A stretch of 26,919 bases of DNA from Planctomycetota bacterium. Lineage in GTDB: Bacteria > Planctomycetota > SZUA-567 > H5-PLA8. The notes beneath the pieces are model-generated. The model did not search any database. It had not been told where the DNA came from and saw nothing but the letters and a program-made list of their open reading frames with translations. The stretch is from assembly GCA_038227875.1 (NCBI GenBank), contig JBBRPR010000089.1, forward strand, positions 1 through 26,919, written 5' to 3'. The position numbers and the translations under genes were made by a program. Of this stretch, positions 1-26,457 are shown in pieces; position 1 is the stretch's first letter, and the number at the start of each line of letters is the position of its first letter.

Positions 1-144
1 AGTTCGGCTTCCGGTTCAGATGTTTCGAGGTCACTTTGCGTTCACTTGCGTTACGGCCCGGTGACTCGCTCGCCATCCAAGATGGCTTTGTCAGTAGGCT
101 TCAGGTCATCGATTTCTCTCCTCCCTGCTACTCAAGCTATACGG
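1..144 (-). ncRNA. Group II intron domain I fragment (5'-truncated, continues off the left edge)
   Basis: Minus strand reads ...TAGCTTGAGTAGCAGGGAGGAGAGAAATCGATGACCTGAAGCCTACTGACAAAGCCATCTTGGATGGCGAGCGAGTCACCGGGCCGTAACGCAAGTGAACGC, which I recognise as the near-5' region of a common bacterial group II intron lineage. The GUGCG start is absent. Recognised from memory, not by covariance model. Confidence 0.65.
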
Positions 145-146
145 GA

Positions 147-1935: not shown

Positions 1936-2124
1936 TAGTAACTGAATTCAAGGTAAGCGTGACTGGTGAAATCCGCTCCACCGCGGGCGACGATCTTGCT
2001 GCACATGCACACATGTGCATCATCCGTATTTTCTTAGGACCAGAGTTGGACCAATGAAAAAATTATGATTCGCGGTTCGCCGGAATACCATTCGACCCAA
2101 CTGAATCCGATGGGAGAGAAGTTC

Positions 2125-5100
2125 ATGCGAAATAGGCAATCATCCTTTGTCTTGGCGTTCGTTTTCATAATTGCTTCGTTTTTCAGCGTACAGGCGCACG
2201 GCGCGGTGGTTTCTGCGGCCCCCTCGAACTATACGAGAATTCTGTCTTCACTCCAGCCGGGCGACACGCTCAACCTTGCGGCAGGCACCTATACCAACGA
2301 CCTTTATGTTGCCGGCTTGAATGGTTCATCCAGCGCATGGATTACCATTCAAGGACCGGCGTCGGGCCCGCCTGCATATTTCCTGGCCAATGCTTCCACC
2401 AATACGGTTGAGCTCGTCAATTGCAGCTTTCTTGCCGTCAAAAACTTGACACTGGATGGCCAGAACCAACCCGGTCCATTCGGAGTCAGCGCCAAAGGTG
2501 GCACGTCCAATCTCGTTCACGACATCCTGATTGAGAACTGTACGATTCAAAACTACAACGGCACGCAGGACACCGACGGTATCTCCACCAAGACGACCAC
2601 CTGGAACTGGACTATACGCGGTAACCGGATCGTGAGCGCCGGGACGGGATTGTATCTTGGCAATTCCGACGGCAACGATCCGTTTATTGCGGGTGTAATC
2701 GAGAACAACCTGGTTCAATTCCCGATTGGCTATTGCATGGAGATCAAGCCGCAGAATGAGTGGCCGGCCGTTGTCGGAATGCCCATTGGAACTACCACCA
2801 CGATCATCCGCAATAATGTCTTTATCAAAAATGATTCACCAAGTCCCAGCGGGGACCGGCCCAATCTGCTGGTGGACAACTTTCCGGATTCTGGAACCGG
2901 ATCGAATAATAGGTATGAAGTTTACGGTAATTTTTTCTACCATAATCCGCGAGAGTCGCTGTTTCAGTTTTCCGGCCGCGTCACAATTCATGACAATATC
3001 TTCGTAGACACGCCGAACAACGCGATCGTCGCCCAGAATCACCAATGGTCGCCAACCACCACCACCACCGCAACCTCGGTGGTCAAGCTGGCATACGTCT
3101 ACAACAATACAATATACTCGACGGGCAATGGAATCCATTTTTCTAGCGCCGCCGCGCAGGCCGACGATGTAACAGGCAACCTTGTTTTCGCAAGCACCCC
3201 CATCGGCGGGTCGATCGTCAATCAAAGCAACAATATCACGGATTCGGTCGCGAATGCGGCAAACTACGTCGCATCGCCATCGATAACTCTGGGTAGCATG
3301 AATTTTTATCCACGAGCCGGCCAATGCAGCGGCAGCGCGTTGAGCGTCTCATTATTTACCGGCGATACCGACTACAGCATCGACTTTAATGGAACATCGA
3401 AGGGATCGTTTATCTATCGTGGTGCATATTCAGGATCTGGAACAAATCCAGGATGGCAATTACAGGCGGCCAATAAACCGCTAACCGGATCAATACTGCC
3501 GCCTTCGATCACCAGCGTCCTGAGTGCCGCCGGTACTGTAGGAACTACGTTCACCTATAACATAGCCGCATCCAACAGTCCGACCAGCTTCAATGCGACG
3601 GGTTTGCCTACTGGATTGTCGGTGAACACGACGAGCGGAGTGATCTCCGGAACGCCGACAACGTCGGCAACATTAAACGTCACCATAAGCGCGACCAATG
3701 TCGGTGGAACAGGTTCAGCGACCCTAACGCTCACCATCAATGCTGCGCCGGCAAAGCCCGTGATTACGAGCGCCCTAACCGCCACCGGGACGGTAGGAAT
3801 GTTGTTCAGTTACACGATTGCGGCCAATAACACCCCCACAACCTACGGTGCGTCGGGATTGCCTGCGGGATTGTCCGTCAACACGGCTACCGGCGCAGTC
3901 TCGGGCACGCCAACAACTGCGGGAGCATCAAACGTTATTATTAGTGCGACCAATGCCGTCGGCACGGGTTCGGCTACGCTGGCGCTTACCATTAACGCAG
4001 CTCCGCCGCCGAAGCCGGTCATCACGAGCGCGCTGACCGCCGCTGGCACGGTGGGCAAGGCATTCAATTACGACATCACCGCCACCAACAGTGCGACCAG
4101 CTACAATGCGACAAGGCTGCCCGCGGGATTGTCGGTGAACACATCCACGGGAGCGATCACCGGCACGCCGACGGCGGCCGGAACAACCAATGTCACCATC
4201 AGCGGCACCAATGCGGGCGGAACGGGAACGGCGACGCTCGTTCTGACCGTTAAGCCGTTACCGCCGGCGATTACCAGTGCCTTGACAGCAACTGGAACGG
4301 TGGGATCGGCGTTCAGCTACACCATCGCGGCCAGCAACAGCCCGGCCAGCTTCAACGCCACGGGTTTGCCGGCTGGTCTGGCGGTCAATGCCAGCACGGG
4401 CGCGATTTCCGGGACGCCCACGGCGGCGGGGACATTCAATGTCACCATCGGTGCCACCAATGCCGCCGGCACGGGCACGGCGGTGCTGGTGCTGACCATG
4501 AATGCGGCCAACCGGCCGCCCGTTATCAGCTCGGCTGCCACGGCCGTGCCCAATCCCGCGACGGCCGGCCAAAGCGTCGCGTTCACCGCCGCCGCCGCCG
4601 ATCCCGACGGCGACACGCTGACGTATTCCTGGTCTTTCGGCGACAGCGCCACCGGAACCGGTGCGTCAACGTCGCATTCCTACGCAGCGGCCGGGAACTA
4701 CACCGCCACCGTCACCGTCTCGGATGGGCATGCGCACACCATTAGCAGCTCGGTAGCGGTTGTGGTCAATGCCGCGCTCGTCGCGCCATCGATCACAACG
4801 CAGCCGGCCAACCAAACGGTCACTGCCGGCCAGACGGCCACCTTTAGCGTGGAGGCTTCCGCCTCGGGGGCACTCTCCTATCAGTGGCAGAAGAATGGCG
4901 CGAATATCGCCGGCGCAACGAGTGCTTCGTGCGGCACGCCAGCCACCACGACGGCTGACAGCGGTTCGGCTTTCCGCTGCGTGGTGACCAACTCCGCCGG
5001 CAGCGCCATCAGCAACGCGGCGACGCTGACCGTCAACGCCGCGGGAACCTACGTGGCGCGGATTAATTTCCAGCCGTCAACTTCGCCTGTGCCCGCTGGA

Positions 5101-5994
5101 TACCAAATGGACAGCGGAGCGGTGTTCAATGCGGCGCGCGGCTATGGCTGGAATGTCGCGCCGGGCTATCGCGACCGCGGATCGATCAATGCCGATGCGC
5201 GCCTGGGTACGTTTGTCTTTGTGTGGGCAAAAAGTTCGGCCACCTGGACGTACGACATTCCCAACGGCAACTACCTCGTGACACTGGCCAGCGGCGATGC
5301 CAGCTACGCGCAGGGACCGCAACTGATCGCGGTTCAAGGCAATGTGGCCGTCAACAATGTCGGCACGAAGGCCAATCAGTTTGTCACCGTCACTGATTTC
5401 CCGGTCAGCGTGTTGGCTGGCCAATTGACGGTGATGATCGGCGGAACGGGATCAGGCAATACGATACTCAATTATATCAACATCAAGCCAGCGACGGCCA
5501 GCTCGGAGGCGACGGTAAGCGCGCTATTGTCATCCGAAACCAGCGCCGTACCCAGTGTAAGTCTGTCAGCGGCGCCTCTGCCGCTGGTCGTTAAGAAATT
5601 GTCGTGCGCAGTCAGTTTCAACAAGAAGGGCCACGATACGGCGGCATTCTCCGGAAAGATCTCCGGCTTGCCCAGCCTGGCCAAACTGGCAGGTCAGACA
5701 GTGCAAGTCTGGATCGGCGGCGAGCAGGCCGCATTCACGCTGGACGGCAAAGGTCATGCCAAGTCCGGCGCGGGGGCGTTGTCGATCACGAGCAGCGGCT
5801 CGATCAATGTGGTGCAGAAGGGACAAACATGGTCACAGCCATGGCCGGACGTTGGGATTGATCCCGCCGCCACCCGCGCGAATGCTAAGCTGAAGGTCAA
5901 CGTGATGCTCTCGATCAACGGAACGTTCTACTCCGGTGAAGTGACTGCGACGTATTTTGGAAAGCCAAACGTCGCAGGGAAATTTCATAACTAA
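2125..5994 (+). CDS. Large secreted multidomain protein: right-handed beta-helix, 4 putative-Ig (He_PIG-like) repeats, PKD, Ig, carbohydrate-binding-like domain and C-terminal beta domain
   Basis: Signal peptide MRNRQSSFVLAFVFIIASFFSVQAHG after a GGAGAG RBS (ATG 2125 preferred over 2065). Asn-rich beta-helix coils (LQPGDTLNLAAGTY, IRGNRI, IENNLV), GLPxGLSVNxxTGxISGTP repeats, PKD motif YSWSFGD and Ig motif YQWQKNG. Confidence 0.88.
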   Translation: MRNRQSSFVLAFVFIIASFFSVQAHGAVVSAAPSNYTRILSSLQPGDTLNLAAGTYTNDLYVAGLNGSSSAWITIQGPASGPPAYFLANASTNTVELVNCSFLAVKNLTLDGQNQPGPFGVSAKGGTSNLVHDILIENCTIQNYNGTQDTDGISTKTTTWNWTIRGNRIVSAGTGLYLGNSDGNDPFIAGVIENNLVQFPIGYCMEIKPQNEWPAVVGMPIGTTTTIIRNNVFIKNDSPSPSGDRPNLLVDNFPDSGTGSNNRYEVYGNFFYHNPRESLFQFSGRVTIHDNIFVDTPNNAIVAQNHQWSPTTTTTATSVVKLAYVYNNTIYSTGNGIHFSSAAAQADDVTGNLVFASTPIGGSIVNQSNNITDSVANAANYVASPSITLGSMNFYPRAGQCSGSALSVSLFTGDTDYSIDFNGTSKGSFIYRGAYSGSGTNPGWQLQAANKPLTGSILPPSITSVLSAAGTVGTTFTYNIAASNSPTSFNATGLPTGLSVNTTSGVISGTPTTSATLNVTISATNVGGTGSATLTLTINAAPAKPVITSALTATGTVGMLFSYTIAANNTPTTYGASGLPAGLSVNTATGAVSGTPTTAGASNVIISATNAVGTGSATLALTINAAPPPKPVITSALTAAGTVGKAFNYDITATNSATSYNATRLPAGLSVNTSTGAITGTPTAAGTTNVTISGTNAGGTGTATLVLTVKPLPPAITSALTATGTVGSAFSYTIAASNSPASFNATGLPAGLAVNASTGAISGTPTAAGTFNVTIGATNAAGTGTAVLVLTMNAANRPPVISSAATAVPNPATAGQSVAFTAAAADPDGDTLTYSWSFGDSATGTGASTSHSYAAAGNYTATVTVSDGHAHTISSSVAVVVNAALVAPSITTQPANQTVTAGQTATFSVEASASGALSYQWQKNGANIAGATSASCGTPATTTADSGSAFRCVVTNSAGSAISNAATLTVNAAGTYVARINFQPSTSPVPAGYQMDSGAVFNAARGYGWNVAPGYRDRGSINADARLGTFVFVWAKSSATWTYDIPNGNYLVTLASGDASYAQGPQLIAVQGNVAVNNVGTKANQFVTVTDFPVSVLAGQLTVMIGGTGSGNTILNYINIKPATASSEATVSALLSSETSAVPSVSLSAAPLPLVVKKLSCAVSFNKKGHDTAAFSGKISGLPSLAKLAGQTVQVWIGGEQAAFTLDGKGHAKSGAGALSITSSGSINVVQKGQTWSQPWPDVGIDPAATRANAKLKVNVMLSINGTFYSGEVTATYFGKPNVAGKFHN
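3499..4509 (+). repeat. Four tandem ~84-aa putative-Ig repeats within the large protein
   Basis: Four copies of PxITSALTAxGTVG..F.Y.I.A.N.P...A.GLPAGL.VN..TG..SGTPT.AG..NV.I.ATN..GTG.A.L.LT. Confidence 0.9.
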
Positions 5995-11044: not shown

Positions 11045-11326
11045 GAAATTCTCAGCAAAAGCCAGGCGGAAGTCGTGATCCTCGGCTTCGCGCATCAAAA
11101 TCCCGGCGCAGAAAGTTCTGTCTTTGAAATGTCTTGTCGTAAAAAATACAACTCATGACCACTTTCATAAATATATGTCATTACTAAAGTTGCGTTTTAA
11201 ATTGACAAGCTCGACAAAGAATTTTGCCAGAAATCTCAGCCTAACTCTTAATTGGCGGACTAAGACTAATGAAGGCGGCGAATGTGATTGAAAATTCGCC
11301 CATTGCAACGCGATAGTGGGACTACA

Positions 11327-12889
11327 ATGGCAACACGCGAACAGTTTACTACCCGAGTTCCTGTCAGCATGCGTGATCACCCATCAGACCTCGAACTCAT
11401 CCAGTCAATTGCTCTTGATCGCGATCGCGTCGCATTTGATGATCTATTTTTGCGCCATAAGGATCGCGCTTTCGGTCTCGCGTACCACATCCTCCAGAAC
11501 TCCGCTTTGGCGGAAGAGGCTGTTCAGGAAGCAATGCTTGCCGTTTGGCTTGCGCCCAAGTTGGACCGCGCCGACCAGAACGTGCCCGCGTGGTTGCTGC
11601 GAATCGTGGCGATAAAGAGCATGAACGTCCGACGCGGTCGCAAACGACAATCGAGCCGCGAAGCGCGTATTTCGCGAAACGATGTTGTGCCCGATTCGGA
11701 ATTGACGGACAACGCAGAACGCGGTGAAACTCTCGAAATCGTCCGGCGGCATTTTCAGGAACTTCCAGAGCTGGATTCCCAACTACTGGCCTGCTGCTTC
11801 GGCGCGAACTTGACGCATCAACAAATCAGTGACCTTCTCGGCATTCCCCGGCGTACAATCACGGGCCGCATCCAGCAGGCGTTGGAACAGTTGCGTGCCC
11901 GCCTTTCGAACAGCGGCGTTGCGCTGATCATGCCATTGCTGAGCACCGAATTGATTCACGAAGCCCTGACGACGGGACATAGTTGCCCGCCCGTGCAGCT
12001 CGTCCTTCCGTCCAAACTGCCAATCCGCTCGCGTAGCATTCGGCATTTGTCAAAAGCGACGTCGAAATCAGGAGTGGTAGTAGTGGGGGGGGCGCTGGCG
12101 GCCGTTGTGATCGCGGCCGTTGCGATAAACAGCGGAATTACGGCTTCCTCGCAGAAGTCGCCCCAGCCTGAGTCTCCGCCGGCCGCAGCGGCTGCCCCAG
12201 TCGTTGCCGGGTCAGAACAAATCAAAGCAGTGGCCGGCACGGCGCCCCCTGAGCCCGCCAGGATTCCAACGCCTGCCGAGACCGGGTCGCAGACTTCGCC
12301 CGCTGGGCCTCAATCGATCAACCGGCATTGGAACTTCAAGGAGGAGCCCGAGAATCTCGACATCCAAATTGTCGATAAGAATTGGGTGTGGGGTCGTCGG
12401 GTTGGTCGCGGTGCGATGGTTTCAGGCAACGGCGATCCTGTAATAGCCATACTTCCCGTCACCATACATCAACAGAGTTGCAAACTGACTTTCAAAATAA
12501 CTCCCAGCGCGAATTCTTTCAGCGTGGAAGTCGGGTGTTTGGATGGCGCGGTCTATCAGCCCAACACATTCTGGCAAACTATCACCGCAATAGACAAAAA
12601 AGAGAAGCTGACGACGACGCTGCTGATTACGCGGGGGGAATGTGTGCAATTGTTCAATGATCATTTAAACAACCACCGTAAATTTGACCGGGATTGGCCA
12701 GGCGATCATCTGCTGATCGGATTCCGGAACGTGGCCGTCGAAGAGATCACGCTTCAAACCATTTCCGATGAAGACGCCGCCAATGAATTCAAGCGCTTAG
12801 AGCCTGAGATTCGCGAGATCCATAAGCTGAAAAGCGAACGATGTCCGTTGCAAACGCTGCCCCAATATGCGCAGCATCTACAGCAATGA
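11327..12889 (+). CDS. ECF sigma-70 factor with a transmembrane helix and C-terminal extracytoplasmic domain
   Basis: Sigma2 (AFDDLFLRH..AEEAVQEAMLAVW..AWLLRI), sigma4 (LPELDSQLL..LTHQQISDLLGIPRRTITGRIQQA), TM segment VVVVGGALAAVVIAAVAI, a Pro/Ala linker and a beta-rich C-domain. Start is uncertain (11288, 11327 or 11369). Confidence 0.9.
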   Translation: MATREQFTTRVPVSMRDHPSDLELIQSIALDRDRVAFDDLFLRHKDRAFGLAYHILQNSALAEEAVQEAMLAVWLAPKLDRADQNVPAWLLRIVAIKSMNVRRGRKRQSSREARISRNDVVPDSELTDNAERGETLEIVRRHFQELPELDSQLLACCFGANLTHQQISDLLGIPRRTITGRIQQALEQLRARLSNSGVALIMPLLSTELIHEALTTGHSCPPVQLVLPSKLPIRSRSIRHLSKATSKSGVVVVGGALAAVVIAAVAINSGITASSQKSPQPESPPAAAAAPVVAGSEQIKAVAGTAPPEPARIPTPAETGSQTSPAGPQSINRHWNFKEEPENLDIQIVDKNWVWGRRVGRGAMVSGNGDPVIAILPVTIHQQSCKLTFKITPSANSFSVEVGCLDGAVYQPNTFWQTITAIDKKEKLTTTLLITRGECVQLFNDHLNNHRKFDRDWPGDHLLIGFRNVAVEEITLQTISDEDAANEFKRLEPEIREIHKLKSERCPLQTLPQYAQHLQQ

Positions 12890-13030: not shown

Positions 13031-13933
13031 ATGTCCGCACAGGAAGACGCAACAGTTCTCGGCATCCCGCAATCTAGCGCTGCGCGCCGGCCCTCCGCAA
13101 TTTCTCAAATTCTGCGAAAAATCAGTGTTGATATGGATGCTTCGAAAGTCGATTGGGATTTGTCGGGCGATGACGATCCGCAGAACCAGTTCCGAATCAT
13201 CGTCGCCGCGGATCGTCAGACACGCAGTCGCGCGTACGCGCTGGCGCATCGCGTCTACCAGGAATCCGGGCTTGCCGCCGCTGCCCGCGGCATGATTGTC
13301 GCGCCCTACGACGCTCGGCCGCACACGCTCACGCTGCTTGCCGTGGATGAACAGGGGCATGATGCCGCCACGATCTCCGTCGTGATAGACTCGCCCGGCG
13401 GTCTGCCTGCCGATGAGATTTACGGCCAGGAATTGACCGCCTTGCGCACAGATGGCCGACTTGCCGCCGAGGTAACGCGGTTGGCGATCAGCAAGGAGCA
13501 CAAGGGTTCTCGGCTCCTGCTCGTGCGCCTCTTCAACTTCATCTATGTCTATGCGCGGCGGGTCTCTGGGTTGGACGATTTTGTCATAGAAGTCCATCCC
13601 CGCCATGTCAGTTATTACCAACGGCTACTGCTTTTCCGTCCGATCGGTCCAGAGAAGCCATGTCCACGTGTAAAGAATTCTCCAAGCGTGCTGCTGCGGC
13701 TGAAATTTGCCGAGAGCGATTCGGTGATCCGGCGTTATGGCGGGAAGCGCTCCGCGGCAGCCTCCGACGGTGAACGGTCGCTCTATCCTTTCTTCTATTC
13801 ATGGCTCGAGGAAGGCGCCGTCGCCGAATTCCTGTCACGTCAGCATCAGCCGATGCACGACGCGGATATCCACTATTTCGGGCTTCATACCCTTGCCTCC
13901 GAGCCGGCGCCAATAGCCGCCGCCGGTGAATAA
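13031..13933 (+). CDS. FeeM/NasY-type N-acyl amino acid synthase (GNAT fold)
   Basis: AYALAHRVY..G, TISVVIDSPGGLPADEIY, EVTRLAI, LFNFIY, FVIEVHPRHVSYYQRLLLF..G..PCPRV..P..LL. AAAGGA RBS. Confidence 0.88.
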   Translation: MSAQEDATVLGIPQSSAARRPSAISQILRKISVDMDASKVDWDLSGDDDPQNQFRIIVAADRQTRSRAYALAHRVYQESGLAAAARGMIVAPYDARPHTLTLLAVDEQGHDAATISVVIDSPGGLPADEIYGQELTALRTDGRLAAEVTRLAISKEHKGSRLLLVRLFNFIYVYARRVSGLDDFVIEVHPRHVSYYQRLLLFRPIGPEKPCPRVKNSPSVLLRLKFAESDSVIRRYGGKRSAAASDGERSLYPFFYSWLEEGAVAEFLSRQHQPMHDADIHYFGLHTLASEPAPIAAAGE

Positions 13934-14004
13934 ATTTAGAGCGGCCGGGCTGGGAAAATTGAATTCCGGTGAACGGCCACAACTCAAACATTAAGGACGG
14001 CGCC

Positions 14005-14544
14005 ATGTTAACGAAGTGTCTTGCCAGCAACGGAAGCGATGCTCCAATTCCGGAGGAACACCTGCTGACGGCCATCCGCCGCGCACTCCTGCGACTGCCC
14101 ATGCTCGACCGGCAATTGATCGCGCTGCATTTTGGCGGAGGTCTTTCGCATAGCCAGATCGCCCAGGCACTGGCGCTGCCGCATCCGCTGATCGGCCATC
14201 GGTTGCGCGCGGCCCTGAGTGGGATGAATTCTCATCTTGAGCGCGAAGGCGTAACAGAGCCGGTCAGTTGCAATTCCGTGGGCCATGCTGTCACCAGCGG
14301 AATGCCCGCTCCAGTCGGCCTTCATGAGAAGATTCAGCAGCGCATTTCAATCGCGATCCGCAATGCCGGCGGGTTGCGGCGTGAAATCGGAATTTCCAGC
14401 CGTTTCGTGATTGTTCTGGCCGTTTACATCAGTGCCTGCGCCCACCCAGAGGAGCCACAACCATGCACCCCTCCAGTTTTGACTACGAGCTCGCCTTCTC
14501 CCGCAACATCGGCCTTGTCAGCCAGCACGAGCAGGACCGACTGA
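14005..14544 (+). CDS. Sigma-70 region-4-only protein, paralogous to the upstream ECF
   Basis: ALLRLPMLDRQLIALHFGGGLSHSQIAQAL..IGHRLRAAL with no sigma2. AAGGA RBS before ATG 14005. The 3' end overlaps thiF by 82 nt. Confidence 0.7.
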   Translation: MLTKCLASNGSDAPIPEEHLLTAIRRALLRLPMLDRQLIALHFGGGLSHSQIAQALALPHPLIGHRLRAALSGMNSHLEREGVTEPVSCNSVGHAVTSGMPAPVGLHEKIQQRISIAIRNAGGLRREIGISSRFVIVLAVYISACAHPEEPQPCTPPVLTTSSPSPATSALSASTSRTD

Positions 14545-15392
14545 AAAAGTGCTGCGTTGCATTGCCTGGGTTAGGGGGCGTCGGTGGCGCCCATCTGCAG
14601 ACACTGGCTCGCATGGGCGTGGGCGCGTTTCGGCTTGCCGATCCTGACACCTTTGACGTTGTGAATTTCAATCGCCAGCTCGGCGCGACAATCAACACGA
14701 TTGGCCGCAATAAGGCGGAGGTCATGGCAGAGGCCGCGCGCATAATCAATCCGGACGCCGATCTCCGTGTGTTTACGGACGGCATCACGAAAGAGAACAT
14801 CGACGCGTTTCTCGCCGGCGTCGATGTGGTGGTCGACGGCATTGAGTTCTTTTCTATGGCAACCCGTCGGATGCTTTATCGCGCGTGTGAAGCGCGTGGC
14901 ATACCGGTGGTGACGGCCGGACCTATTGGTTTCGGAGCGGCCGTCTTAGTTTTTCTGCCGGGACAGACCAGTTTCGATAGGCATTTTGGAATTGACGACG
15001 AACTGACGCGGGCGGAGCAGTTGCTGGCGTTCGCTCTGGGACTGACGCCTGGAATCGTCAGCGACGTGGATCCGTCGCGCGTCGACCTTGCCGGTCAGAA
15101 AGGACCCGCGCTGGCGTCTGCGTGCATGCTTTGCGCCGCAACGGCAGCGACAGAGGTCCTGAAAATCGTCTGTCGGCGCGGCAAACCGCTGGCCTCGCCG
15201 CGCGGCGTTTATTTCGACCCGTTCCGCGGCCGGACCTGTAGCCTGCGTCCGCGTCCATCATTGCGTTCGCTGCGCGGACGCGTGTTACGCTGGATCGCGT
15301 TTCGCCGGTTTCCGGAGTTTCGGCGGATGCACGACCAGGAGATGCAGGCCCGCGGTTCGGGCCTGCACGCTGCCGTTCCGACAAGTCGATAG
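14463..15392 (+). CDS. ThiF/E1-like adenylyltransferase (non-MoeB type)
   Basis: AFSRNIG..EQDRL, GLGGVGG, DPDTFDVVNFNRQ, K, VVVDG. Lacks the MoeB Zn-binding CxxC motifs. GAGGAG RBS. Confidence 0.92.
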   Translation: MHPSSFDYELAFSRNIGLVSQHEQDRLKKCCVALPGLGGVGGAHLQTLARMGVGAFRLADPDTFDVVNFNRQLGATINTIGRNKAEVMAEAARIINPDADLRVFTDGITKENIDAFLAGVDVVVDGIEFFSMATRRMLYRACEARGIPVVTAGPIGFGAAVLVFLPGQTSFDRHFGIDDELTRAEQLLAFALGLTPGIVSDVDPSRVDLAGQKGPALASACMLCAATAATEVLKIVCRRGKPLASPRGVYFDPFRGRTCSLRPRPSLRSLRGRVLRWIAFRRFPEFRRMHDQEMQARGSGLHAAVPTSR

Positions 15393-15434
15393 GTGTCGTG
15401 GCGCCCATTTCCCGCACGAGCGGAGACCGATGCG

Positions 15435-16586
15435 ATGATTGATAATTTACCGATCACCCATGCCATGCACTCGACCAGGCCAGACACCTTAGACGTGTTG
15501 CACGCGATGGCGGAAGCGGCCTCGCGGGCACCGTCCGGCGATAACCTTCAGCCCTGGACGTTTGTGATAGACGCAAAATCCCAATGCCTGGAAGTATGGC
15601 TAGAAACACACTCGGACCCTTCGTCGCTCAATCCAGGACAGCGCATGTCACTCATCGCTTGCGGCTCGGCGATCGAGTGCGCGGCTTGCATCGCGGACGA
15701 TTACGGCTGGACCACGGACGTCCAACTTGCAGCGCCGTGCGAGGTTCTCCCAGCGGAGCGGTTGCCGGTCGCCCGTGTGTATCTGCGCGAATCCGTGGGT
15801 CGCGGTCCGTGTAGAATATTTCAGCGGTTGATAGACGCGCGCACAACCAATCGGCATCTTTATGACTGCTCGCAAGTCGCCGCCGACACACTCACGACGC
15901 TTCTGCGCGAAACGCTACAGTTCGGCACCGCGTCCGTTTGCTGGATTACAGAGCGAAATCAGATCAATGCTTGCGCGCGCCTGGCCGCTGACGCAGATGT
16001 CATGCTATTCAGCGAGGACTCCATGCGCCGCGCTTTCCTGAAAAACGTTCGGTTCGATCTGCCGGCGCGTGCACCCGCGGAGCGTGGTTTACCACTGGGC
16101 GCACTTGAGATTTCGGCATTTGAACGTCTGACCCTTCGCTCCCTCTGCTTCACGCCAGACTGGCTGTTCAAGCTGACGCCTGCGCCGTGGCTGTTTGCCC
16201 GCTATGCCAGCAGATTGGTGCGAAGCGCGTCAGGACTTTGCATCGTTTCAACTCTCGGTGCGAGGCAGGCGGAACTTTCAGCGGGTCGCGCGATGCTTCG
16301 CGCGTGGCTGGCGCTCACCGCACAAGGCATGGCTGTGCACCCAATGATGTCTGGAATAGCGATGACGCAAGCGATTGAGTCTGGGTCGCCGGAACTCATT
16401 CGCTCCCTGGGATTGGAAAAGCTGCGCGCGTACGTCACCGATTTCCGCGCCACGCTGGCCATGCTGGGCGTCAAAGGCTCGCCGCAATTCCTCATGCGCT
16501 TTGGCCGCGCGGCGGCGCCAACAGCACGAACATGCCGAATGCCGCTGGCCGCATTGCTCCGCGCACCACAAGGGCCCAACCCATGA
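15435..16586 (+). CDS. Nitroreductase-family (Acg-like tandem domain) flavoprotein
   Basis: RAPSGDNLQPW, ACGSAIE, RTTNRHLY, AGRAMLRAWLALTAQGMAVHPM and RFG motifs. GGAG lies 9 nt before ATG 15435. The frame is open from 15393. Confidence 0.88.
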   Translation: MIDNLPITHAMHSTRPDTLDVLHAMAEAASRAPSGDNLQPWTFVIDAKSQCLEVWLETHSDPSSLNPGQRMSLIACGSAIECAACIADDYGWTTDVQLAAPCEVLPAERLPVARVYLRESVGRGPCRIFQRLIDARTTNRHLYDCSQVAADTLTTLLRETLQFGTASVCWITERNQINACARLAADADVMLFSEDSMRRAFLKNVRFDLPARAPAERGLPLGALEISAFERLTLRSLCFTPDWLFKLTPAPWLFARYASRLVRSASGLCIVSTLGARQAELSAGRAMLRAWLALTAQGMAVHPMMSGIAMTQAIESGSPELIRSLGLEKLRAYVTDFRATLAMLGVKGSPQFLMRFGRAAAPTARTCRMPLAALLRAPQGPNP

Positions 16587-16932
16587 TCTCCATCGGCTGG
16601 CGCAGTCTTCCCGGCAAGAAAGCACAACTTAACATTGCACAACTCAACACTGAGGTGGCCAATGCGAACGTACGAAGAAGTCGACGCGCTGATTGAGCTG
16701 ACGCGGTCCTTTTATGCCGAGTGTGCAGCGTTTCGCACCGCCAGTGCGGAGGGGCGCCTCTCCCCGGCTGAGGACGCGAAGGTTCAGCGCCGGCTCGAAC
16801 GAATGGATGCGCGTATCGAGGGGTTCAAGGGTAACAACGAGCTCGAGCGCTGCAGAGCAAAAAATTTCATAAACATTATTCCGATGACGCCGTTTGGCCG
16901 GAAGGCGGCACGATGATCTCCATCGGCTGGCG
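16583..16932 (+). repeat. Perfect 20-bp direct repeat ATGATCTCCATCGGCTGGCG (16583-16602 and 16913-16932)
   Basis: Directly visible. It duplicates the first 20 nt of the permease gene. Confidence 0.92.
16662..16916 (+). CDS. Small hypothetical helical protein (84 aa)
   Basis: GAGG RBS before ATG 16662. The stop overlaps the permease start (ATGA). Confidence 0.6.
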   Translation: MRTYEEVDALIELTRSFYAECAAFRTASAEGRLSPAEDAKVQRRLERMDARIEGFKGNNELERCRAKNFINIIPMTPFGRKAAR

Positions 16933-17662
16933 GAACCTAAAGCGTGATCCGACGCGGTGCGCGATTGCCGTGCTCGGAGTTGTATTCGCCGTCGTTCTGG
17001 TCACCGTTGAAGTCGGCATGCTGCTGGGTCTAGTCCGCAACGCGTCGCTGCTGATCGATCAATCTAGGGCGGATTTGTGGGTCTCGACCGTTGACGTCAA
17101 GACGTTCGACTTTGCGACGCCGATCGATCAGCGCAAGCGTTATCGCATCGAAGCGGTCCCTGGGGTGGAGCGAGTTGAAGAATTCAACGTCTCATACAGC
17201 ATCTGGAAACTGCCCGGCGGCGGCAACGCCAACTGCCAGGTGATCGCCATGGACGACGGCGGCCAGCTGGCCGCGCCGCTTAATCTATGCGCAGGCAGCG
17301 TCGAGGCGCTGCATAATCAAGACGCAGTCATTATCGATGAGGGTGAACGCGCAAAGCTCGGTAATCCAAATCTCGGCGAAACCGTTGAAGTGTTGGGGCA
17401 TCGCGCGAAAATTGTCGGCTTCACGCGTGACACACGCTCGTTCACGACGACGCCTTTTGTCTTCTGCTCGCTGCGCCGTGGCGTCAAATACGGCGACCTG
17501 CTTCACGATAACAGCGGCATCTCCATCTATTTTCTGGTGAAGGTCAAGCCCGGTTTCGATCGTGAGTCCGTTCGCGCGGCAATCGCCGGCGCCATCCCTG
17601 ACATTGAAGTTCACACACGCGAGGGATTCAGTTGGCGCACGCGCAGCTATTGGCTGATCGAG
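16913..17662 (+). pseudogene. ABC transporter permease (DevC/FtsX/MacB type), truncated before the C-terminal TM helices
   Basis: WRNLKRDPTR..IAVLGVVFAVVLV, ADLWV and a periplasmic domain ending at RSYWLIE (~aa 250). The ORF runs on to 17908 through hydrophilic, unrelated sequence. Confidence 0.82.
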
Positions 17663-18126
17663 CAACTAAGAGTATTTCATTTAAGATCAAAGCCGGAGCG
17701 AAGACGATATCGGGGAAGTAGCGTTGCGGTAGAAAAATCTGATCTATCGGAACGGCCCAAATCAAAAAGCAGAACATGCTCGCCAATCACGGCATTCGAG
17801 GCTCCGGTAATCTGGGGGACCTCGTTTGACTTGATCCGTACGATGCTTTTTCGGCGGGGAGGTTCACGCCACTGCCGAGTTCAAGCGACTTCGTCATCGG
17901 CGGGTTGAGCCGCTTGTCGTGTTCGGCGACAGCGTCATAAGTTTCTCAAGGCAGATAATCGGCCCCGAGTTCGCTGCTTTGAATTGTCGAGTCTCCAAGA
18001 AAGACCGGTTGCCCGAACGCCGCATTAGTCATCATTCTTGACGATAGACGTATTCGTTCGGATGCCAATCATTGCATTCGAAACTCCGAGACGAACTACG
18101 GGCTCACTGGGTAGGACGCGCGCCAA

Positions 18127-18606
18127 ATGATGGTAACAGAAGTCAAAATCAAGCTCGTTGTCCGGACGGACGATAGACTGCTGGCCTTCGCCAGCATTAC
18201 GTTCGATCGTTGCTTCGTCGTACGGGACATAAAAATCATTCAGGGTGCCAGCGCGGTTTTCGTAGCGATGCCCAGCCGCAAGATGTCGGACCGATGTCCA
18301 AGTTGCAGTGCCAAGAACCATCTGCAAGCGCGCTTTTGCAATCATTGCGGACGCGAACAGAGTGGGAGAAATGTACGCCATGACCGCCACGGTCGAGCCG
18401 AGCTGCATGCCGACATCGTTCATCCGATCAATTTCGAATACAGGCAAGACATCCACAACGCCGTATTGAAAGGCTACGACGAAGAGTTGGAGCGCTCGCG
18501 TCAGCCCGGATACGTCCCTTCGACTCAAGATGGTTTGGACGCAGGACCGGAATGTAATGACGCGGCGACAAACATGCGGATGGTCGCGCAGTCGGATAGA
18601 AGATAG
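18127..18606 (+). CDS. spoVG: SpoVG-family nucleic-acid-binding protein with Zn-ribbon insert (copy 1)
   Basis: VTEVKI..LLAFASITFD.CFVVRDIKII.G...FVAMPSRK, CxxC..KNH..CNHCG and ADIVHPIN. Confidence 0.92.
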   Translation: MMVTEVKIKLVVRTDDRLLAFASITFDRCFVVRDIKIIQGASAVFVAMPSRKMSDRCPSCSAKNHLQARFCNHCGREQSGRNVRHDRHGRAELHADIVHPINFEYRQDIHNAVLKGYDEELERSRQPGYVPSTQDGLDAGPECNDAATNMRMVAQSDRR

Positions 18607-19531: not shown

Positions 19532-19575
19532 TCATTGGCCGAGAAGCTTTCACGGCCCCGGGGGCGCAGCGTCGC
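19532..19575. repeat. 44-bp dispersed direct repeat, copy A
   Basis: TCATTGGCCGAGAAGCTTTCACGGCCCCGGGGGCGCAGCGTCGC, 40/44 identical to 21100-21143. Confidence 0.88.
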
Positions 19576-19734
19576 CCGAAACGAAATGGCGACTGCGGTC
19601 TTCGAATTGCCTAACGCGAACGCAATGTTGATAGTACGGGGCTGCCACGCGTATACCAAATCATTGGCAATGACGCTCGCATATTATATGTTTTCATTAG
19701 ATTTGTTATTGAAATGACTTTGGAGACGCGTTGC

Positions 19735-20211
19735 ATGTTCGTCACTGAAGTGAAGATAAAGCTTGCCCCTCGAGCGGACGACAAGCTATTGGCCTTTGCG
19801 AGCATCACGATCGACCGTTGCTTCGTGGTGCGCGACATCAAGATTGTCCAAGGGCCCCGCGCGATCTTTATTGCGATGCCCAGCCGAAAAATCACTGATC
19901 ATTGCGCAGCCTGCGGCACCAAGAATCATTTGCATGCGTTCTTCTGCAATCACTGTGGGCTCAAGCTACGCCGCAGGGAGAAGCGACAGGACGAAACGGG
20001 CCGACTTAAGCTGCACGCGGATATCGCTCATCCGATCAACGTTCGATGCCGCCAAGCAGTCCATGACGCGATATTGAAAGGCTACGCGGAAGAACTGGAG
20101 CGCTCCCGCAAGCCCGGATATGCCCCGATTGGCCAAGACGATCTTGACGCGGGTCCGGAATATTCCGACGCTGGAACGCTGCCTTTTCGTGGAATTCCTT
20201 CGGTCGAATGA
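19735..20211 (+). CDS. spoVG: SpoVG-family protein with Zn-ribbon insert (copy 2)
   Basis: Same motifs as copy 1 and colinear with it over the full length. GGAG RBS before ATG 19735. Confidence 0.92.
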   Translation: MFVTEVKIKLAPRADDKLLAFASITIDRCFVVRDIKIVQGPRAIFIAMPSRKITDHCAACGTKNHLHAFFCNHCGLKLRRREKRQDETGRLKLHADIAHPINVRCRQAVHDAILKGYAEELERSRKPGYAPIGQDDLDAGPEYSDAGTLPFRGIPSVE

Positions 20212-21099: not shown

Positions 21100-21143
21100 T
21101 CATTTGCCGAGACGCTTTCACGGTCCCGGGGGCGCGGCGTCGC
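21100..21143. repeat. 44-bp dispersed direct repeat, copy B
   Basis: TCATTTGCCGAGACGCTTTCACGGTCCCGGGGGCGCGGCGTCGC. Confidence 0.88.
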
Positions 21144-21352
21144 GCGGGCATGGCCGTTCGAAGTTCCGGGACCGGGTCGCTGCGCGCCCCATCCTAGCGG
21201 TAGTCGCCCAGCAGCGAGTCGGCCTTCTGCGCTGCGGCCACGTCCCGGGATAGCGCTGGATCAATTGCTGGCAGCTCGCGACGACCGTCGCGATGTCCTC
21301 CGCGTTCAATTTCCGGAAGGCGGGCGCCTGCGGGTCCTTTTTGCCCGCGACC

Positions 21353-21595: not shown

Positions 21596-21799
21596 ATGCT
21601 GTCCAAACTTCAACGTCACGCGGCGATCGCGCTTGCGGGTCTGGCCGCCGCCGATCGGGAACGAGTGGTTCGACGGGGCTACCTCGTGGTCAATGTCGAC
21701 CGCGGCGCGGAGACTGGCGTTTGGACGCCCGTGAACCTGGACCCCGACGTCATCAAGGCGGCAGATGCGCTCGCTATGGCTGGGGCCGTTCGAGACTGA
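21596..21799 (+). CDS. Small hypothetical protein (67 aa)
   Basis: GGAGG RBS before ATG 21596 and coding-like codon usage. Confidence 0.55.
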   Translation: MLSKLQRHAAIALAGLAAADRERVVRRGYLVVNVDRGAETGVWTPVNLDPDVIKAADALAMAGAVRD

Positions 21800-21895
21800 A
21801 TGGACGGAATCGCCGCTGAGCGACGGAATCAGTACGCGGTATGAACTTACTTCCGACCTTCTGCTCAGCCATACGGCCGACGAGACAACTCCGAG

Positions 21896-22192
21896 TCAGA
21901 TCCCTGCCGAAGGCGCGCTTTCGCCTACCTTCTTCTTCATCAGCCTTCCGGCGCTGAAACGGACGACTTGCTTACTCGGTACGTCCACCGCCTCCCTTGT
22001 CTTGGGATTTCGGGCTTTCCTCGCCTTTAGAATGCGTACTTCGAAGACCCCGAAGTCTCGCAGTTCCAAACGTCCCTCAGACACCAGAACGTCCACGATG
22101 CCATCGAGGGTCAATTGGACGACCTGCTTCACCGCGATCTGTTCTATGCCCGTCTTCGCGGCGATGGATGAGATCAACTCGTACTTTGTCAT
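21896..22192 (-). CDS. HU/IHF-family DNA-binding protein
   Basis: MTKYELISSIAAKTG...GRLELRDFGVFEVR...RKARNPKT...V.VP...VRF..G. Confidence 0.95.
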   Translation of the reverse strand: MTKYELISSIAAKTGIEQIAVKQVVQLTLDGIVDVLVSEGRLELRDFGVFEVRILKARKARNPKTREAVDVPSKQVVRFSAGRLMKKKVGESAPSAGI

Positions 22193-22222
22193 GGTTGCAA
22201 CGTTCCGGCCATTCGTCCACCG

Positions 22223-22663
22223 CTACAAAGTTTTCAGCTCTTCGACAGTCTGCTCCAGCGCTTTCACCGCCGCGCCGATTTTCGCCCCAACCTGCTGCTC
22301 TACCATGCGGCTGACGATTGCTTCGATGCCGTCCAGCCCCGCGACGTTCATCGCAGTGGCAGCGCCCTTCGGCCTGCCCGGCCCCTTCTTGACGGCGTTC
22401 TTGCTACCCTTGGGCCGTCCGGCTTTCTTCTTGGCCGCAACGGGTGCTTCCGCCTTACCAGGCGCTGCTGGCTTGACCGCCTTACTCGACTTCTGTTGCT
22501 TCTTGCCACCGGCGAACTTCATAAGGTACTGCAACTGGCCCTTGTAGCCCGCGTCCTTGGCTGCTTTGAGCGCATCGGGCCATGAGCCGGTCTTGCGAGC
22601 GGTCTTGACGGCCTCGATGATTGCGGACTTCTGTTCGTCGGTATAGGGGCTCGTGCGGGGCAT
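22223..22663 (-). CDS. Basic protein with two AT-hook motifs and a C-terminal coiled coil; candidate nucleoid-associated protein
   Basis: KKKAGRPKGSKN and KKGPGRPKG motifs, Lys/Ala-rich, AGGAG RBS, 30 nt upstream of the HU gene. Confidence 0.75.
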   Translation of the reverse strand: MPRTSPYTDEQKSAIIEAVKTARKTGSWPDALKAAKDAGYKGQLQYLMKFAGGKKQQKSSKAVKPAAPGKAEAPVAAKKKAGRPKGSKNAVKKGPGRPKGAATAMNVAGLDGIEAIVSRMVEQQVGAKIGAAVKALEQTVEELKTL

Positions 22664-22979
22664 GGGCGAGAGGTCTCCTGTTTGGGTTGAAGGTCAGGAG
22701 TTTATCGAATTGTGTACGAATTACAAAGGAGCGAAAACCAAGGCGAGTCCCCGAAGCGCCGAAAGCCGGCCAGAGGTTTAGCCGTGGACTGGGCCTGGGC
22801 AAAAGTTAACAATTTAACGTTTGGTACTTTCCTTAAAGTACTGATGGCGTCTACCCGTACCAAATCCGTTCAAGATCATTCCTGTGCCGAGCCGGTCAAA
22901 CGTCACCTTGGCCCGATGATCATGTCGAATTCGTCAATTGATCGCCCAAAGGAGCAGTCCAAGCACGTTGACCGAAGTG

Positions 22980-23415
22980 TCAAAATTTAGAGGACGGAAT
23001 TGGGGGCGAGTGGACTTCTCCTCGTGCTCCCAATTCGTTTAGCCGCTGTAATGTCATTGAAGCCGGAACGACACGGAGAGGATTCTGGTCGCCATCCAGA
23101 AACCCAACTATGCCAACGAGCGACTCTCCGAGTCTGTAAATAGCGCGCATTTTGAACATCCCGCCCTCAACCATAAAATCGGTATAGCCCGGTATAGCCC
23201 CATAGTTCCCCGTGAACAAGGGGATCCTCTGGCCTGACGTACTGCGGTGCCGACGGTAGAAGAGCAAGCACTTCATCAGGCGAGTTCGGTCCTCTGACGT
23301 ACTCCAGTGGAATCAGGATTTCAATGATTCCATCTTTGCAAACCCGCGTTGAGGACTGCCCCATCCGGAAAGTACAATTCTCATTTTTCGTCGAGCAATG
23401 TTTCTTGTTTTTCAT
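22980..23415 (-). pseudogene. Hypothetical ~141-aa gene split by a 10-bp tandem duplication
   Basis: CGGTATAGCC occurs twice at 23180-23199. Removing one copy fuses ORFs 23167-23415 and 22980-23276 (…GELWGYTDFMVEGG…), giving 426 nt. Confidence 0.55.
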
Positions 23416-23613
23416 CTTTCTAGGCTCCTGTAATTTGTTTGAGTCAATTCACTCCAGACCATGCATGTTGCAACACTGTCTCTGCTTAGGTTGCGTTTCA
23501 ACCATGGTATGTTTGCGACGGTTCTTGGTCGGTTGGCCGACCAACCAAACCAATCCCAATTCTGGTTTCGGCAGGCTCGTATACAGCGCACTGCTTGCTA
23601 GTGCGCCAGTCCT

Positions 23614-24009
23614 TCAGCGGGACGTGCATCTTCCCTCGCTGATCGAGTACTCGTCCCAGACGACGGTCTCGGGGGCGTGCGCCAGCTCCTCGGCGTGCCC
23701 GTCCACATCGATGCAGCGCAACGCAAACGTCAGTCGAAACTTCAAAGACGCGGCCAAGATGAGCCTTCCGATGTGGCCGCCGCCGGAAGAAACAACCAGC
23801 CGATCGAGATCGGGCTCCCACACGAGGAGTCGATGCAAGCGGACGTGACACCTCGCCTCTGCGGCAGCATTCAATTGGTCGAAGCCGCCATACCCGGTAA
23901 GAACGCTCTCGCCGGGAAAGGGGATGTTGTTGCCGTAAACAAACTGGACGAATCGCAGAATCTCGGCGGGTTCGCCCGTCATTGTCACGAGGGTTTCAAA
24001 ATTATTCAT
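23614..24009 (-). CDS. Hypothetical protein (131 aa)
   Basis: Translationally coupled (ATGA overlap) to the upstream acidic ORF. No family recognised with confidence. Confidence 0.6.
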   Translation of the reverse strand: MNNFETLVTMTGEPAEILRFVQFVYGNNIPFPGESVLTGYGGFDQLNAAAEARCHVRLHRLLVWEPDLDRLVVSSGGGHIGRLILAASLKFRLTFALRCIDVDGHAEELAHAPETVVWDEYSISEGRCTSR

Positions 24010-24248
24010 GGCATTAGGCCCTTCTCTGCGCGTTCTTCCTTGAGCCTCTCCTGTTCAGCGAAGCCGCTCAGAAATTCCAACTCCTCCTCGGCGGCGATGA
24101 TGTCGATCCAGCGCTGCTCCTCCTCGCTGATTTCGTCGGGCAAATCGTCCTGGTCTGGGTGCCTCCCGCCCGGACGACACATCAGGAACGCATCGGGGTC
24201 TTGCTGGTACCAGTACGAGTCCTCATGCGCCGTGGTCCATTCATACAT
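24006..24248 (-). CDS. Small highly acidic protein (80 aa)
   Basis: AGGAG RBS before ATG 24248. About 23 Asp/Glu versus 7 Lys/Arg. Confidence 0.68.
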   Translation of the reverse strand: MYEWTTAHEDSYWYQQDPDAFLMCRPGGRHPDQDDLPDEISEEEQRWIDIIAAEEELEFLSGFAEQERLKEERAEKGLMP

Positions 24249-24711
24249 GCTCGAACTCCTGTCATTGCCGCGCCGCGGGGGGCGCGCCCCCTGAAAACCG
24301 GACATCGGGCTAGGAGTGGCTCAAGGGGCGCGCCTGCGGCCATTACGGCCTGCTTGGTTGTTGTCGTGGGAATCAGCCCGATGTCCTCGACCCACTGGAT
24401 TATACAGAACATTGGACGCCGCCGTTTCGGGGGGCGAGGAAGGCGTCTCAGGTCGTGCGCCGCCTTGACGAAAGACAGCCAGTGCCCATGGATGCGCAGG
24501 TTGCGGAGTGAAGCCTGCGCAGTGGCGCACGACTTCTTTGTGCCTGGAAGCTGGAGCACCGCGAGCAACTACGGCTGTGCTTCGGCAAGATTCTGGACAG
24601 CAACGGCGTGGAGGGGAGCATCGTCACATTATTGCTCGTAAGAGAAACGGTTCGGTCGCATCGTATCTCGGAAGGGTGCCTCGACGCGAGGCAGCCGTGG
24701 CATCACCGTGT

Positions 24712-26177
24712 TCAGGCCGCCCTGAAGCGTTCAAACAATTCTGGATCCTCGATCGCAAGATGCTTCAATTGCGCCGCGAGCATTGTCAATGCTTTGTGGT
24801 ATTGCGCGCTCAGGTGATCCGACGAATATTCGTGGCCGAATTCGTGGATTAGCAGATCGTCCTGCTCTATTGAGCCGACGTCATCAAACCACGCACGCCC
24901 AAGACAGCCCACTTCAAACGTGAGTTCTCGTGCGCCGTAACACGCCGCGAACTGTCGATTGGCCCGGGTGAATCGCACCGTGATGTCCACGCCCATCAGG
25001 CGTCGCGCAAGAGTTGTTGCGTACTCCGCCGTGCGTTTCATGCCATCGGTCCATTCGCTTTCGGGGAGCAGTTCCTCGGGAATTGCGTTCGGGTCTCGCG
25101 AGTATGGCTTCGGTGACGGAGTCACTTTGCCCGCTGAAGTGATCGCGGCTGCCCTTCGCATCTGTTCCCATTCGCCGGCGGAGCATTGTGAACCCGTGAC
25201 AACCGTGTAGCCCTTGGAAAAGGCGAGGGAATTCGCCTCTGGGTCCGACGGATCATAGGAAACGCGACGTTCGCCGAACCTCTTATCAGCCATGGTCCGA
25301 ATGGCATCGTCCGACGCATGCTTGTCGCCGGCGGCTTCCCGAGCCCAGGGTTGGTTCGCGTCGTCCTGCGTGAGCCTTGTGAATGTGGCGTTCAAGGCAA
25401 GGACGCGAAGTAGGCGCAGAAATGCCGGCGGAACATTGTCGCGCTCAAAGCCCAGCGGCACCTTCTGCTGTACGTCGTAGTGGAATTTATCCCCGGTCTC
25501 CACAACGGGAACGCCCAACTCGTATACGCATCCCTGCTCGCCGGGAAGCGGCTCGTGGATGTTCACACGTGTTTTTCTAAACACCCGCCGGAGTACGCCG
25601 GACTCGTCGGCGATTTCCGTTTGAAGGGAATCCTCAAAGGACGCGATGGCTATGCGCGGCACCACGAGTTTGCCGTTAAAGGTGGCCTTTATTCCGCTGG
25701 GGACGATCAGTCTGGCCGCCGCGTCGCACATTTCGTGGTACTGGTCCCGGGTCGCGCGCAATACACCGGCGAAGAGGCTGCCCTGCGGCCGTCTCTCTCT
25801 TAGGCTGTGGCGGCCGGAGTCGTCGAATCGCACGCCGCCTGAGGTTGTGATCACGCGTGCCTCGTCGCACAGGGCGATCACCATTTTTTCACCCAGGTTG
25901 AATCGGCCGCGGAGCAAGGGATCGCCCTTTTTCCCGGACTCGGCAAAGAGCGTCCATGCGTGGCTGAGTTGGGCGAATCCGTCCGGCGAATCGTCCTCGA
26001 TCTCGACGCGAACCTTTGGCTGGCCCGCCACCGGCTCCAGCTTGATGGCGACGTTCGCAACCCCCTCCGCGTCCATGGCATTCTGCCAAAGTTAAGTTCG
26101 AAGATCACGTACGAAAGGCCGCGCCGCTCAAGCAGTTTCGCCAGGCCCTTTTTGTCTACCGAGAATAGCTCCGACAT
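24712..26177 (-). pseudogene. GHKL (HATPase-like) ATPase fused to a C-terminal HExxH zincin-like domain, frameshifted by a 5-bp duplication
   Basis: AGGAGG RBS and ATG 26177 (MSELFSVDKKGLAKLL). AAGTT is duplicated at 26089-26098, and removing one copy restores the N-box ELWQNAMD. Then IEDDSPDGF, RGRFNLG and C-terminal LLIHEFGHEYSSDH. Confidence 0.82.
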
Positions 26178-26457
26178 GTGCGCCTCCTGTTTATCAAGTC
26201 TTTCAATGGCAGTCCGTCCTACTTTCTCGTCGGGCTTGCCCCACTTTCGCTTGTAGTCCCGCGCCAGCCTCTCCCAACTCGGCGTCTTAACGTGCCTGTC
26301 CAGGCCCAGCAATTCGTCCCGAGGATCGACCTTTGGCTTCACTGGGATCGGAGGCAGCGGCGGCCCAGCAGTGCGCCGATGCTCCTCGCCTCCTTCCCAG
26401 CCGCGACAAGTGCGCGATCTGCCACCCACTCGAGGCGCTCTGTTTCCACTTGGCGCC

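Follow-up and report, generated by a model that had tools for sequence, protein, structure and literature searches.

Enzymes that turn N-acyl amino acids into oxazolones or dehydro-amino acids have been described in several bacterial lineages, and the outlines given here follow the accessible parts of the cited papers. OxzA makes N-acyl-tyrosine, which OxzB converts with ATP to tyrazolone (bioRxiv 2020.06.11.147165). TyzB and TyzC are separate proteins, the former cyclizing with ATP and the latter desaturating with O2 (PMC10404671). In the case of TrzS, cyclization is the initial reaction, and the ring is opened by acid or methanol (PMC12856293). A trio of NAS (N-acyl amino acid synthase), ThiF protein and nitroreductase has been published for Stieleria (Planctomycetota), Massilia and Thalassotalea, and no oxazolone was observed for the planctomycete clusters in the accessible part of that report (PMC12479983); a putative regulator and transporters are mentioned for the Stieleria cluster (PMC7293339). 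Here we describe a gene cassette of this kind on contig JBBRPR010000089.1 of a Planctomycetota bacterium. The window is the entire contig (C89; 26,919 nt), which belongs to a genome (G000) of 9.34 Mb in 176 contigs, 88% complete; labels beginning with C, G and L (e.g., C49, G004, L080) denote contigs, genomes and fetched loci of the comparison set.

The cassette probably specifies a TyzABC/OxzAB-like pathway that acts on an aromatic amino acid under the control of its own sigma factor. Its product would be an acyl-oxazolone or a ring-opened dehydro-amino acid, which either stays cell-bound or is exported by the pump of another cassette.

Identity of the three enzymes

An ORF and profile scan of the window places the NAS, ThiF and nitroreductase genes and a fragment of a devC gene all on the + strand. 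A preliminary description of this DNA had reported a co-oriented FeeM-type synthase, ThiF and nitroreductase, and all three are present and apparently intact; two further ORFs in the same span, 14005-14544 and 16662-16916, had been overlooked.

The synthase (13031-13933) scores 155 bits against PF21926, for which the cut-off is 27, and its sole PDB match is FeeM (2G0B, E 1e-8). Residue E147 aligns with the Glu of the FeeM AEV motif at a position that is Glu in 58 of 69 homologs, and we take it to be the catalytic active-site residue. With a PF21926 score above the cut-off and Glu at the conserved active-site position, the protein is of the FeeM/NasY type.

The ThiF protein (14463-15392; 309 aa, intact) matches PF00899 and reaches 347 bits with PRK08223 (cut-off 266), and it stays under the cut-off for the other 22 models listed, including MoeB, ThiF and TcdA. 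The GxGGxG, DxD and NRQ motifs, K84 and D125 are invariant in a 42-row alignment. The absence of the MoeB zinc motifs, noted earlier, is confirmed: the protein has a single CxxC (C221/C224), which lies at another site than the two-CxxC pattern of the MoeB-type rows, and the MoeB model is among those below cut-off. By predicted function it is a TyzB/OxzB-like adenylyltransferase and cyclase.

The third enzyme (15393-16586, with the probable start codon ATG at 15435) appears to be TyzC-like, a flavin-dependent oxidase that belongs to the nitroreductase superfamily and has a single domain. Its best matches are of the Acg/FDO type, namely Acg itself (2YMV, E 3e-5, the best PDB match) and the Acg-family model NF047509, although the latter score, 134.5 bits, is under the cut-off of 199; matches to PRK07877 and PRK14851 are also below cut-off. 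It is 40% identical to the C-terminal halves of the fused ThiF-nitroreductases P0185 and P0186.

Conserved alignment columns are kept in all three proteins, at 74 of 74 in ThiF, 31 of 34 in the nitroreductase (locus L010 being excluded from this count) and 20 of 22 in the NAS, which is at least the median of each alignment. The tri-fusion model PRK14852 (989 aa) is also matched by the three proteins one after another, at profile positions 31-246, 312-588 and 612-803. The closest named ThiF homologs belong to the phylum Planctomycetota, which makes the planctomycete origin given in the preliminary description likely, and homologs of 78-83% identity are found elsewhere. Among the 120 longer ThiF homologs listed, 102 carry a nitroreductase Pfam domain, the best two being 64-65% identical to the window ThiF; 60 of the same 120 are also matched by the nitroreductase of the window.

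In a 56-row tree, from which the duplicate loci L001, L002 and L006 and the short matches L100 and L016 were omitted, the window ThiF falls together with ThiFs of related cassettes in a 19-row clade (starred) inside a larger group that is mostly synthase- or nitroreductase-linked, with the TcdA and MoeB rows apart. The combination of NAS, ThiF and nitroreductase recurs in relatives and in other phyla: among the 16 best related loci, 5 have all three genes, with two loci sharing the same map and five of the 16 lying on contigs shorter than 6 kb, and the combination is also found in cassettes of genomes G001, G002 and G004. The preliminary description had named a grouping of ThiF and nitroreductase with unrelated clades, or the lack of synteny elsewhere, as results that would contradict its reading. 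Because no contradiction of a kind that can be read from sequence was found, the view that the three genes likely carry oxazolone/dehydro-amino-acid chemistry is well supported.

The ThiF and nitroreductase genes lie in one frame across a single TAG (15390-15392), and the joined frame would have 707 codons, compared with 686-728 aa in the fusions. The four closest stand-alone ThiF homologs (78-83% identity), however, terminate at the same position, and on this comparison the two-polypeptide split is genuine. That a fused, OxzB-like gene was broken by a nonsense codon can be rejected, since in addition to this shared end the other split ThiF/nitroreductase pairs are out of frame in 7 of 8 cases and TAG is a normal stop in G000, where it ends 918 long ORFs. 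A contig of run X1, which is a possible source of the window DNA, shows no difference at the TAG.

Regulation and the cassette array

The probable regulator of the cassette is an extracytoplasmic function (ECF) sigma factor encoded at its head (11288-12889, +), with sigma regions 2 and 4 recognized by Pfam and one membrane helix (aa 262-280) indicated by hydropathy. Its C-terminal domain, which matches no Pfam family, is modeled by AlphaFold as a beta-sandwich (pLDDT 89.6), and Foldseek relates the model to galectin-8 and calreticulin, i.e., to ConA-lectin/galectin-like folds (E about 2e-5, TM 0.4-0.5). The link to a dedicated sigma factor, asserted in the preliminary description, is real at the level of the genome: 15 of the 19 FeeM genes of G000 are preceded, no more than 2 kb upstream and in the same orientation, by a full-length membrane-anchored ECF sigma gene, versus only 0.6% of 3000 random ORFs. 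Conversely, only 19 of 131 sigma matches in G000 carry the shared C-terminal domain, a count that is partly circular in that its profile derives from 18 sigmas chosen beside synthase or ThiF genes. Cassettes mapped in the class relatives G021 and G028 mostly lack a sigma gene, and the sigma wiring therefore seems to be a trait of the family. ECF sigmas with membrane-spanning extensions are already known generally (PMC7826278). Among the papers listed in literature searches, we found none on sigma-headed synthase arrays, their DevC-type exporters or the small protein described below, and supplementary data might bear on these. A promoter and terminator scan gave no excess over shuffled sequences.

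One of the overlooked ORFs (14005-14544, +) follows the synthase gene and overlaps the start of ThiF. It contains sigma region 4 (Sigma70_r4_2) without region 2, and its ATG at 14005 is assigned from a Shine-Dalgarno-like sequence. The best paralog, at 36% identity, occupies the same place after an NAS gene at G000:C49:12813, and similar ORFs occur on C64 and C17 and in two cassettes of G004. The ORF is a truncated member of the same ECF family as the sigma factor at the head of the cassette, either a relic or a decoy regulator.

The neighbors of the 19 synthases vary among ThiF/oxidase pairs, FAD oxidases, methyltransferases and glycosyltransferases (60 neighbors scanned), and the G000 synthases mostly cluster together in a FastTree phylogeny. 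As judged from these comparisons, the 19 synthase loci are the outcome of lineage-specific duplication, followed by shuffling and decay of the tailoring and export genes. No ring methyltransferase was found by Pfam among the 23 window ORFs scanned; one is present in the cassettes on C51 and C27. A search of 31 genomes found FeeM in 13 of them, G004 giving 24 matches, G021 47 (many of them split) and G028 13; PRK08223-type ThiF was matched in 9 of 62 class genomes and 16 of 401 phylum genomes.

Several features of the related loci may be recorded here. In G021 and G028 FeeM has expanded: many of the matches fall within open frames 600-1200 aa long, which may include multi-domain fusions, and most have no sigma gene beside them. 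A protein of 380-490 aa without a Pfam match, a candidate tailoring enzyme, recurs beside synthases of several cassettes and genomes (L080:13154-14308, L087:6271-7491, L130, L166 and L174). Small YgaP-like membrane proteins are encoded between sigma and synthase or ThiF genes at L086:9035-9343, L097:8269-8604, L125, L129, L136 and L144. A reverse-order fusion of 664 aa, nitroreductase then ThiF, is found at L010:4679-6673 in a Bdellovibrionales genome.

Expression of the cassette would start with the outward-facing lectin-like domain of the sigma factor, which may sense an envelope or glycan cue, whereupon the freed sigma would transcribe the genes. The NAS would then use acyl-ACP or acyl-CoA to acylate an L-amino acid; to judge from characterized relatives, Tyr, Phe and Trp are the likeliest substrates. 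By analogy with OxzB, TyzBC and TrzS, ThiF would adenylate the carboxyl group with ATP, so that the amide oxygen closes the oxazolone ring, and the FMN oxidase would desaturate the alpha-beta bond with O2. The product would be an acyl-oxazolone or, once the ring opens, a stieleriacine-like N-acyl 2,3-dehydro-amino acid. The latter may be the end product, because planctomycete clusters have shown no oxazolone. The role of secreted signal or antibiotic that the preliminary description considered for the product is conjectural. The window locus itself would provide no export step, and the lipid is expected either to stay cell-bound or to leave through the DevC, ATPase and HlyD proteins encoded by the cassettes on C13 and C9.

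Broken exporter, small protein and alternative readings

The preliminary description had linked the enzymes to an exporter through a DevC/FtsX-type permease. The gene in question (devC, 16913-17662, +) does encode a DevC-type MacB_PCD (periplasmic) domain, but Pfam detects no FtsX domain in it and its homology stops at codon 250 (17662), compared with a length of 377-401 aa in close paralogs. What is left, two thirds of a DevC-like permease counted from the N-terminus and with 1 of 4 membrane helices, is 89% identical to a full-length 377-aa paralog at C49:1628. No ABC ATPase or HlyD gene lies next to or after it at the window locus; complete permease-ATPase-HlyD sets are present in the cassettes on C13 and C9. 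The gene is a probable pseudogene, and because it is truncated, with no ATPase or adaptor gene adjacent, the proposed exporter link fails for the window copy.

About 200 bases past the break lies a decayed piece (17860-17940, -) of an unrelated multicopy gene family, with DNA matches of 71-84% on nine other contigs. Those matches that were checked lie near the 5' end of ORFs of 346-419 aa, a family that we take to be FGE-sulfatase-like. An assembly mis-join at the devC break is rejected, given that the break is spanned by a contig from run X1 (39 nt to its left, zero differences, depth 10.2 vs 11.4), a contig that is not independent, as run X1 is a possible source of the window DNA; the listed pieces of runs X2 and X3 do not bridge the break. 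Run X3 shared just 0.12 of the words and was set aside as a guide to habitat.

The start of devC is present twice as a direct repeat of 20 identical nt (16583-16602 and 16913-16932), and the two copies flank the gene for an 84-aa protein. The first copy, a relic devC start on the + strand, reads MISIGWRSL before diverging; the chance of an exact 20-nt repeat in 9 kb is about 4e-5 by an arithmetic estimate. Because this copy continues like the C49 devC paralog for 7 more bases, it suggests that the window cassette is a join of two cassettes. The front half of the cassette is closest to C49:10275-13169 (sigma 47%, synthase 63%). The 330-bp piece between the repeats has no second DNA copy in G000, and the idea that it is a mobile element with a target duplication is rejected in favor of a cassette join, since the piece is single-copy and contains a conserved cassette gene.

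Several observations weigh against a functional pathway at this locus. Both the broken devC and the relic sigma-4 ORF are what a decaying locus would show, and none of the 3 listed runs that hold window DNA, as found by a search of the DNA kind, is an RNA run. Sigma-70 consensus promoters number 2 against 2.7 expected, in a scan that excludes ECF promoters. At position 316 of the nitroreductase, His replaces the Gln found in 22 of 25 rows, and the protein deviates from the alignment at two further conserved columns. Kinship with OxzB, TyzB, TyzC and the Stieleria enzymes is judged through relatives, the authentic sequences lying outside the comparison. Finally, the accessible part of PMC12479983 describes the clustered nasY2 of S. 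neptunia as dispensable, so that clustering did not predict the working synthase there.

These points raise the question of whether the cassette is a decaying, silent duplicate that has lost its exporter and keeps intact enzymes only because the decay is recent. The truncated devC fused to a decayed gene, the relic devC start and the sigma-4-only fragment would agree with this, as would further broken copies in the genome, namely a ThiF gene with an internal TAA at C17:152197-153096 and frameshifted or deleted pieces of devC at C105:14128-14400 and C64:12771-13350. We nevertheless consider it unlikely, since the sigma, NAS, ThiF, nitroreductase and small-protein genes are all open and full length, the enzymes keep nearly all of the conserved columns counted above, ThiF homologs of 78-83% identity occur elsewhere, and the genome has two complete exporter sets.

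It is more doubtful still that the activated acyl-amino acid, as an adenylate or azlactone, serves as an acyl donor that lipidates envelope proteins or glycans instead of yielding a free small molecule, a reading prompted by the association of such synthases with PEP-CTERM/exosortase sorting. A tri-fusion relative on a Nitratidesulfovibrio plasmid adjoins PEP-CTERM genes, a PEP-CTERM gene is noted in the Stieleria cluster (PMC7293339), and the window synthase matches TIGR03694 weakly. That match, however, reaches 16 bits against a cut-off of 112, and no exosortase (PF09721) is matched in the 88%-complete genome, so by both measures the synthase falls outside the PEP-CTERM/exosortase-associated acyltransferases. 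A PEP-CTERM search was blank too, though its control likewise gave no signal, and the characterized systems yield free lipids.

The 84-aa protein (16662-16916, +), which represents an unannotated family, is modeled as a helical hairpin (pLDDT 79) and has a variable C-terminal tail without Gly-Gly (alignments A1 and A3). It has no significant match in Pfam (best E 0.028) or by sequence in the PDB (best E 0.027) and none in Foldseek at E<=0.001; an ESM Atlas match of 0.77 is unnamed. Searches gave 62 matches among 50%-identity representatives, nearly all of 65-120 aa. With a profile built mostly from the same 10 copies that it reports, the protein was found in 5 of the 9 genomes of the host's family, and one other weak match was obtained among the 401 phylum genomes searched. 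Around the 10 copies, devC lies within 1.5 kb downstream in 9, ThiF within 1.5 kb upstream in 7, and ATPase and HlyD genes behind in 7; the protein is absent from the longer fused ThiF homologs (0 of 120 listed). It is missing beside 15 of 24 devC matches and is therefore not required by every devC. From this genomic context it is most likely an accessory of the DevC exporter operon; its family is new, is confined to this lineage and has an evident partner in the genome. A role as the ubiquitin-like or RiPP-type substrate of ThiF, with the nitroreductase as oxidase, is very improbable: ThiF enzymes usually activate protein C-termini (PMC12596934) and ThiF precedes 7 of the 10 copies, but the tail lacks Gly-Gly, the model is not a beta-grasp, and the 3 copies without a ThiF within 1.5 kb are to be set against 9 of 10 preceding devC; the G012:C105 cassette shows no ThiF in 13 kb.

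Elsewhere in the window, a group II intron D1-D4 fragment (RF02003, 74 bits) at 46-177 (-), at the contig end, is the sole Rfam match, and an ORF with an IS630-like transposase helix-turn-helix lies beside it at 320-742 (-). The gene at 2065-5994 (+) encodes a surface protein of 1309 aa that combines He_PIG, PKD and Ig domains with internal repeats and has many paralogs in the genome. A zinc ribbon is inserted in each of two SpoVG paralogs (18127-18606 and 19714-20211, +), which are 67% identical to each other, and a third is found on C21. A 47-nt direct repeat (19532-19578 and 21100-21146) is 89% identical, six ORFs tested in 21765-26600 have no Pfam match, and a scan of the window found no tRNA.

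Comparison with known systems

The preliminary description presented the locus as the same chemistry carried by two separate polypeptides in a different phylum. The split is real, but the claim of novelty is wrong, because TyzB and TyzC are separate chains (PMC10404671) and the trio has already been published in Planctomycetota, in the stieleriacine clusters (PMC12479983). The chemistry is known, and taken by itself the locus contributes a further set of enzymes for oxazolone/dehydro-amino-acid lipids; what is new from the window is the sigma-4-only ORF, the family of the small protein and the loss of a working exporter gene. The wider pattern carries more weight: with 15 of 19 synthases placed behind their own sensor sigma, both regulation and product diversity can be tested cassette by cassette, and the complete cassette on C13 is a better object for bench work than the window copy. 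As a tentative extension, about 15 membrane-anchored, lectin-domain ECF sigmas of this uncultured family might each switch on their own synthase together with tailoring genes that differ between cassettes (those for ThiF/oxidase, FAD oxidase, or a methyl- or glycosyltransferase), which would amount to a combinatorial lipoamino-acid signaling code; a few shared DevC-type exporters would need the 84-aa subunit, and the sigma-4-only proteins would tune the cassettes. We regard this as possible but rather doubtful.

DevBCA-type tripartite ABC exporters (TIGR01185) have a role in lipid export. Relatives of the window permease have permease, ATPase and HlyD genes in a row, whereas in the window the FtsX domain is missing, as are the genes for ATPase and adaptor. 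The PRK14852 tri-fusions, such as DVU_RS16045 on plasmid pDV, contain the same domains in the same order, with 49% identity in ThiF; DVU_RS16045 is one 989-aa protein encoded next to PEP-CTERM genes, whereas the window has three genes. In OxzAB of Pseudoalteromonas rubra, likewise, an N-acyltransferase gene lies upstream, and the ThiF and nitroreductase domains follow in the order seen in the window (bioRxiv 2020.06.11.147165). In the window, the adjacent N-acyltransferase gene is present, with the sigma-4-only ORF in between, but OxzB is one fused chain and the window has two genes whose intervening stop is conserved in position among close homologs. Because there is no ThiF-nitroreductase fusion, the window cassette is not a strict OxzAB member.

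The clusters for stieleriacine, kyonggic acid and thalassotalic acid share with the window separate genes for NasY, ThiF and nitroreductase, and they include planctomycete examples (PMC12479983, PMC7293339). Their genomes have 3-4 NAS paralogs each, compared with 19 NAS loci in the window genome, and the window locus differs from them in having no methyltransferase. For stieleriacine-type clusters, the accessible parts of these reports describe neither a membrane-anchored sigma at the head of each one nor a small protein of this kind. TyzABC of Mycobacterium tuberculosis comprises an acyltransferase, a separate ThiF cyclase (318 aa) and a single-domain flavin oxidase (372 aa), with a transporter gene adjacent (PMC10404671). 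The window differs in its co-oriented FeeM-type synthase (PF21926), the ECF sigma at its head, the DevC type of its broken transporter and the extra small protein. The layout of TyzABC is nevertheless present in the window, where a stand-alone ThiF gene lies next to a stand-alone nitroreductase gene with an acyltransferase gene nearby, and a corresponding activity is predicted.

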